Shown: positions 32,479 through 33,096 of the stretch, piece by piece
Layout: every line of letters begins with the position of its first letter
Position numbering within the stretch: position 1 is the first letter of the stretch
Assembly: GCA_964106645.2 (NCBI GenBank)
Contig: OZ067047.1
Strand: one strand, 5' to 3'
Length of the DNA stretch: 64,000 nucleotides
Source of the DNA: Podarcis pityusensis
Lineage: Eukaryota
Program-made: the position numbers and the translations under genes
Notes under the pieces: model-generated
Seen by the model: the letters and a program-made list of their open reading frames with translations, nothing else
Database searches by the model: none
Told to the model about the DNA's origin: nothing

Positions 32479-32779
32479 CTGTGAGAAAAGAAGAAGTGGA
32501 AGCAAAAAGAAGAGGGAGGAGACCCTCAGTCACTCTGTTTCATCAACGTATCCCATGGGTCTTCCATTGCAAGGCCTTTGCAAGAAGTGAGAAACCAACA
32601 GTTAAAGGTTTTTATGTTCACCATTTATATATATATTATAATGGAACAGAATCAGGGGGAACATGTGAAGATTTTAGTCATAATGGTATATGATTGAATC
32701 CCAGGTTGAAGATAAACGGAGAAAAATAAAGTAAGAGACTAGCTAGACTACAAACCAAATACTTGTTAGACACACTTAC

Positions 32780-32839
32780 CTTTCCTCCTTGTGAGAAAGG
32801 AGGTATGAGGCTTGTTTCAGCATCCCTGCCTGCCCTCTG
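32780..32839 (-). other. WNK1: Candidate 60-nt cassette exon in intron 3 (NAGNAG acceptor; phase-0 reading QRAGRDAETSLIPPFSQGGK)
   Basis: ttttttacag|CAG|AGG...GGAAAG|gtaagt; consensus donor. Confidence 0.65.
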
Positions 32840-33035
32840 CTGTAAAAAATTAGTACTGGAAAGAGTCCACAGCTAGTCTCTGACCCGTAACACTCCATTT
32901 ACTTCTGTTTAGTGTCACTTTAAACAAAGCCTTGCAATGAAAAACCCTGTGTTTATGAATAAAGGTTTCTTAAAAATTAATTTTTCAAAAATGTTCTGCA
33001 AAGGCCACTCACCAGAGCCCTTTTTACATACTTAC

Positions 33036-33096
33036 CATTTCACCTGCAGTACATTTTATAGGCCTACTGCAGATACAGGAAATAGTGAGGGACATC
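33036..33096 (-). other. WNK1: Candidate 61-nt cassette exon in intron 3 (an alternative donor at 33012 gives 84 nt)
   Basis: atttttgcctgtag|GATGTC...GAAATG|gtaagt, with a second strong donor CTG|gtgagt 23 nt downstream. Confidence 0.6.

Follow-up and report, generated by a model that had tools for sequence, protein, structure and literature searches.

Introns of more than 1 kb can hold several short noncoding cassettes, or decoy exons, as in SF3B1 (intron 4), OGT, SNRNP70, and SPTA1; these cassettes have close alternative 5' splice sites and cause a premature stop if they are included (the parts of PMC6097662 and PMC7373989 on these genes). For similar cassettes, the relevant sections of PMC6097662 describe two outcomes, inclusion of the cassette or its action as a decoy. 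In tested decoys, the alternative donors are 7-12 nt apart (PMC7373989, in the part on these decoys). RNA structure is involved at BRD2 exon 3b and BRD3 exon 5b, which are stop-bearing cassettes in domain-coding regions and are repressed by arms in both flanks (PMC10789245, in the sections on these exons).

In WNK1, an internal promoter in intron 4 gives rise to the KS-WNK1 isoform, whose first exon (exon 4a) encodes 30 residues with six cysteines in mammals (PMC6014176, in its description of this exon). When WNK1 of human and mouse was surveyed by RT-PCR, alternative exons were reported only at exons 8-10, 10-13, and 25-27; none of these regions, as given in the survey section of PMC3365125, is in the kinase domain. 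Tables S2a (mouse brain) and S5a (human neurons) of PMC13078869 list 12 and 10 skipped-exon events of WNK1, respectively; placed by the lengths of the flanking exons, none of them lies between exons 3 and 4. Further supplementary splicing tables had no row for WNK1, which is a weak negative, as these tables may be partial or may use other identifiers. We found no report of cassettes in WNK1 intron 3 in the literature that we searched, with subscription papers and bioRxiv supplements outside its scope.

Here we analyze candidate exons in intron 3 of WNK1 within a 64,000-nt stretch of the Podarcis pityusensis genome (contig OZ067047.1), which we call the window. A preliminary description of the window proposed a four-exon insert, whose parts we refer to as units A to D (Table 1). 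The intron resembles those with decoy exons in that it is longer than 1 kb and contains candidate noncoding cassettes with close 5' splice sites (33044, 33036, and 33013). The donors of unit B are 8 and 23 nt apart, which resembles the spacing in the tested decoys (PMC7373989, same part). Unit C resembles the BRD2 and BRD3 exons: it is a stop-bearing cassette in a domain-coding region with arms in both flanks. However, the known decoys are highly conserved and are supported by junction reads after nonsense-mediated decay was blocked and by minigenes, according to the parts of the two papers cited above, whereas the units in intron 3 are sequence predictions. Similarly, the BRD arms are conserved and were validated with compensatory mutants (PMC10789245, same sections), whereas the arms around C come from one genome, in a locus where similar stems are common. 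Thus, the mechanism class is already well known, and the case for this intron consists of motif statistics in one genome.

Table 1. Positions of WNK1 exons, candidate exons, and complementary arms in the window
Feature	Position	Strand	Description
WNK1 exon 3	34422-34202	-	221 nt; HRDLK..DLG..SFAKSVI; ends in phase 1; from protein mapping
Unit A	33307-33287	-	21 nt; keeps the frame and, if included, would insert NNSLLIG in the activation loop; donor weak
Unit B	33096-33036	-	61 nt; candidate poison or decoy exon; donor ATG/GTAAGT
Unit B, alternative donors	33044 (53 nt), 33013 (84 nt)	-	missed in the preliminary description
Unit B, alternative acceptors	33066, 33063	-	missed in the preliminary description
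Outer arm, 5' side	32947-32926	-	22 nt; complementary to 32578-32557
Inner arm, 5' side	32884-32871	-	14 nt; just upstream of the acceptor of C
Unit C	32839-32780	-	60 nt; candidate poison exon; donor AAG/GTAAGT; in-frame TGA at 32819-32817
Inner arm, 3' side	32744-32731	-	complementary to 32884-32871
Outer arm, 3' side	32578-32557	-	complementary to 32947-32926
Unit D	32478-32454	-	25 nt; donor GCG/GTGAGT; 68 nt from exon 4
WNK1 exon 4	32385-32228	-	158 nt; from protein mapping
KS-WNK1 exon 4a, coding part	22235-22149	-	in intron 4; 29 codons, five cysteines, VFVII block; donor GAG/GTAAGA

Results

WNK1 intron 3

The window contains the WNK1 gene on its minus strand, and WNK1 proteins of snake and turtle map along that strand. 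The genome is in 336 contigs for 1.5 Gb, and the window is present in it once. Intron 3 is 1,816 nt long, has almost no repeat cover (0.01), and splits the kinase activation loop at SVI/G/TPEF, just after the serine that is equivalent to human Ser382. (In splice-site motifs, slashes mark exon-intron boundaries.) Ser382 is an autophosphorylated serine of WNK1 (PMC9496095 and PMC13686953, in the parts on its role). The peptide of exons 3 and 4 in a database homologue is identical to the chains of the solved WNK1 kinase. Downstream of intron 3, we mapped about 19 more introns. The acceptor of exon 4 (32389-32386, minus strand) ends in AAG, has a short pyrimidine tract, and is far weaker than the acceptor of unit D, which lies 93 nt upstream. 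Neither AATAAA nor ATTAAA occurs in intron 3, so a role in protecting against intronic polyadenylation would have no visible target. In three WNK paralogues, the activation loop is likewise interrupted by the matching phase-1 intron, which measures about 2.3, 2.2, and 4.6 kb and has repeat-like inserts; intron 3 has no similarity to these matching introns.

Candidate exons in intron 3

As the preliminary description stated, all four units (21 + 61 + 60 + 25 = 167 nt) are flanked by AG and GT, and they stand as predicted exons. The acceptor and donor score 8.3 and 9.9 bits for B, 5.7 and 12.2 bits for C, and 13.3 and 9.5 bits for D. These sites are inside the range of real exons (acceptors 2.8-11.3 bits and donors 4.5-12.1 bits; the D acceptor is at 13.3). 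The acceptor of D is the strongest in intron 3, compared to 6.2 bits for exon 4, and if it were used to extend exon 4 by 93 nt, this would also lead to a premature stop.

Unit B had been described as a single 61-nt exon. This AG..GT unit is present, but its two additional donors and two additional acceptors had been missed. If B is entered from exon 3 in phase 1, it reads GCPSLFPVSAVGL and then TAA (33058-33056), as described, and all nine pairings of the three donors and three acceptors of B reach this TAA, which overlaps a TATAAA at 33060. The proposed outcomes for the other units also held up: C alone would introduce an in-frame TGA, D alone would shift the frame, and A alone would stay in frame. 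Of the 15 combinations of units, 14 lead to a premature stop, and only A alone stays open. A stop that arises from including B, C, or D precedes a later exon junction by more than 50 nt, as in poison exons that act through alternative splicing and nonsense-mediated decay.

Frame-preserving microexons are defined as having 3-27 nt, and A resembles them in its size and in being in frame. However, its donor is weak, its splice sites do not score above background (1.2-5.3 equal pairs are expected per intron of similar size), and none of the homologues listed bears an insert. We therefore rejected A as a frame-preserving microexon, and because its score is at the background level, we left it out of our reading of the cluster.

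Clustering of donor motifs

Strong donors are unusually dense in intron 3, beyond what is expected by chance. Four G/GTRAGT motifs (33036, 33013, 32780, and 32454) occur within 583 nt on the sense strand, and none occur on the antisense strand. The other 21 mapped introns of WNK1 contain 8 sense and 5 antisense motifs in 94.6 kb (13 per 189 kb of both strands). In a genome background of twenty evenly spaced 10-kb pieces, analyzed on both strands, we found 30 motifs in 400 kb, with at most 2 in any 583 nt. The background rate is about 0.07/kb. The matching introns of the three WNK paralogues contain no G/GTRAGT on the sense strand. The scan P value, for a cluster like this one arising anywhere in a stretch of similar size, ranges from 5e-5, with the rate from WNK1 introns, to about 1e-3 (9e-4), with a conservative rate that is based on composition; if the tandem donors of B are counted once, it is 0.009-0.04.

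Intron 3 also contains four strong exon-like pairs, which represent three distinct units, as compared to 0.11/kb in the other introns. When B, C, and D were scored as whole exons, a general consensus matrix and a post hoc threshold gave P of about 1e-3. With a matrix trained locally on 22 sites, P was 0.07-0.09 for these exons and 0.02-0.09 for the cluster, and by this measure the cluster is weak. The cluster was chosen from a large scan of many windows.

RNA structure around units B and C

Two nested pairs of arms (22 and 14 nt) enclose C, so that there are arms in both of its flanks, as in BRD2 and BRD3. The 421-nt region around C has a fold z score of -5.15 (-124.6 kcal/mol) as transcribed and of -4.61 (-116.3 kcal/mol) in antisense, and the transcribed strand has G-U pairs. 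The outer stem outscores 60 of 60 shuffles, but 20 of the 95 tiles of the locus contain an equally strong stem, and 11 of the 95 still do once repeats are masked, so this stem is suggestive only. A hairpin at B has a z score of -3.3 over 67 nt and of -1.0 with its flanks.

We also considered whether the arms derive from a transposon. The region around C has one DNA match in the genome, and the pattern of the arms has only four other matches with one mismatch. The genome search, which may miss old repeats, did not find a repeat family for the arm region, and Rfam had no match for it. An origin of the arms from a transposon is not supported by these searches.

Transcripts and homologous proteins

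We mapped RNA reads to the intron sequence only, without exon anchors. Run X24 had no reads on intron 3, and run X22 had two, at about 32650-32780, which probably come from one fragment and contain no joints. For runs X15-X20, the share of sampled words that were present was 0.06-0.09, which is not evidence for splicing.

No peptides from the units were found at the junction of exons 3 and 4 in the best 120 of 6,726, the best 120 of 580, or the best 120 of 845 protein matches. The first of these sets has 65 proteins with the standard junction and 55 that read through into the intron; the second has 28 standard, 91 other, and 1 without the motif; and the third has 118 other and 2 without the motif. 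Matches of five residues to the unit peptides either came from the native AGMLK, which precedes exon 3, or were scattered and due to chance. All 16 of the cluster members P0121-P0136 have the standard junction. The open reading frame of C has no relatives among 1.84 billion representatives. Since poison exons would be rare in protein sets, the protein searches test only the coding models. In a metagenome scan, the best 80 of 343 loci included one vertebrate-like (fish-like) WNK, and its intron is unrelated.

Eight of 120 homologues have exons 2 and 3 spliced together and then read into intron 3, ending a few codons in. The short WNK1 proteins that enter intron 3 are P0005, P0012, P0014-P0016, P0019, P0039, and P0040. 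These endings might stem from retained introns, from polyadenylation within introns, or from the projection of gene models; among the homologues listed, read-through ends are also found at later introns.

The frame of the joined units

The preliminary description emphasized that the joined units are one nucleotide short of being in frame. Adding a base does open the 167-nt join into a 56-codon insert, but this is no better than expected by chance: it was also true for 19.8% of 20,000 random sets of intron pieces with the same lengths and for 25.4% of shuffled units. If three or four of the shuffled units may be picked freely, one base is enough to rescue some choice of units in 79.6% of 5,000 trials. 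The site proposed for the extra base, GGCCT, is not special, because a base at any of 57 positions has the same effect.

The description also noted an ATG at position 2 of B, which might begin a second kinase-dead isoform that parallels KS-WNK1. The ATG is present and its frame is open, but this frame joins that of exon 4 only if D is included (B+D or B+C+D); from B alone or B+C it is not in frame. An ATG frame that is at least 20 codons long and joins exon 4 occurs in 25.2% of shuffles. Since rescue by one base and such ATG frames are both common in random sets, neither property is informative.

Exon 4a of KS-WNK1 is intact in this window, has a phase-0 donor, and is separate from the cluster in intron 3. 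It fits the published description of the first exon of KS-WNK1 (PMC6014176, in the text on exon 4a). A parallel to KS-WNK1 is thus not needed to explain B, because exon 4a is already present in intron 4. B and KS-WNK1 do share the gene, and any start within intron 3 would give a kinase-dead product. However, KS-WNK1 starts in intron 4 and has a cluster of cysteines with five bulky hydrophobic residues (PMC6014176 and PMC3365125, in their accounts of this isoform), whereas the B peptide has three scattered cysteines and no five-residue hydrophobic block. B was also rejected as the first exon of KS-WNK1 because it is in intron 3, while that exon belongs to intron 4 and is joined to exon 5.

Other features of the window

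A 432-codon open frame at 7938-6643 (minus strand), which resembles the HSN2 exon of WNK1, is absent from the three reference proteins that we mapped. There is also a 100-codon open frame (PPVLCAPLSPSYLRTAPEETF..) at 9533-9234 (minus strand). It resembles the ends of two homologues, P0025 and P0034, and is probably a further alternative exon before HSN2. A stem that spans 595 nt (9181-8586) is beside this frame. Very strong short-range inverted repeats at 24782-24596, 23335-23223, and 5237-5102 are probably remnants of small transposons.

Discussion

We put the chance at about even that B, C, and D are independent noncoding cassettes, poison or decoy exons, that would lower long WNK1 only. They are predicted to be mostly skipped. 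If one of them were engaged, a premature stop in the activation loop would truncate the kinase before the APE motif, and the transcript would be subject to nonsense-mediated decay. Alternatively, the cassettes might serve as splicing decoys that delay the removal of intron 3 or hold it in the transcript. The RNA duplex formed by the arms would repress C, as for BRD2 exon 3b. Only the long, kinase-active form would be lowered, because the first exon of KS-WNK1 is downstream, in intron 4. We infer from the sequence that the spliceosome would recognize the cassettes, that decay or intron retention would follow, and that the duplex would repress C. Because the units need not be joined in splicing, their summed length of 167 nt is meaningless. 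When B, C, and D are considered one at a time, the poison logic of the preliminary description holds, and the clustering of their donors exceeds chance, but none of the three models that it offered (a degenerated coding insert, a base-calling error, or a kinase-dead isoform) is supported.

It is very improbable that the units descend from an ancestral coding insert of 56 codons that was turned into a poison cassette by the loss of one base. An added base at many positions would indeed restore the open frame, but 20-25% of random sets are rescued likewise, and 80% are if the subset can be chosen freely. No such insert lies between SVIG and TPEF in the best 120 of 6,726, 580, or 845 homologues, the frame of C has no matches among the representatives searched, and the units are absent from the WNK paralogues. 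Furthermore, 56 residues beside the equivalent of Ser382 and the P+1 loop would be unusual for a kinase. It is extremely improbable that the insert is truly in frame and that the assembly dropped one base. We sampled 232 31-mers over 2,195 nt, of which a single indel should remove about 3 (for a share of about 0.986). Run X1, which is from another study and has the same organism label, contains a share of 1.00 of these words, and this argues moderately against a dropped base, although X1 could be related to the assembly. The share in run X2 is 0.99, which would fit a minor discrepancy at some point in this stretch. However, the assembly is of few contigs for its size, a longer run of A after the TAA would leave the stop in place, and nothing beforehand suggested that the frame should be open. 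An internal promoter in intron 3, whose donors would belong to alternative first exons of a kinase-dead isoform, also seems quite unlikely. Translation would start at MSLTISC.. and continue through B+D, or else at a methionine in exon 4. The TATAAA at 33060 is about 45 nt upstream of the donor at 33013, the B+D and B+C+D frames are open, and WNK1 is known to use an internal promoter elsewhere (PMC6014176, as above). However, first exons would not need the acceptor that lies behind each of these donors, a second TATAAA occurs at 32629, and the N-terminus was not found in the best 120 of 580 homologues of exon 4. Open ATG frames of this kind occur in a quarter of shuffles, the cysteine-hydrophobic motif of KS-WNK1 is absent from the peptide, and a proper exon 4a exists.

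The main rival to poison or decoy cassettes is that the units are chance pseudo-exons, accompanied by chance inverted repeats or by an old transposon remnant, and that the spliceosome ignores them. We consider this possible, if somewhat unlikely. The RNA, protein, and cross-species data that we examined gave no support for the units, pairs of splice sites at the level of A are expected 1-5 times per intron of similar size, 12-21% of tiles have a stem as strong as the outer one, and the feature was selected out of many windows. On the other hand, the scan P values for the donor cluster are 1e-4 to 1e-3 against two independent backgrounds, all of the donors lie on the sense strand (4 versus 0), and no repeat family was detected, with the caveat that old repeats may be missed.

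If B, C, and D are poison or decoy cassettes, a more elaborate scheme can be imagined, which we consider unlikely: a squamate switch in WNK1 intron 3, gated by RNA structure, that would affect the long form only and so reset the ratio of long WNK1 to KS-WNK1, together with a 21-nt microexon that alters the kinase. In an ectotherm, such a switch might be tied to body temperature or to salt load. The microexon would place seven residues beside the autophosphorylated serine and yield a full-length kinase with altered activity.

No alternative exon in the kinase domain of WNK1 is described in the literature that we examined. Salt handling and cell volume are controlled by the dosage of WNK1 and by how its long and kidney-specific isoforms are balanced. 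If B, C, and D are indeed poison or decoy cassettes, then intron 3 would contain a splicing control specific to the kinase-active form.
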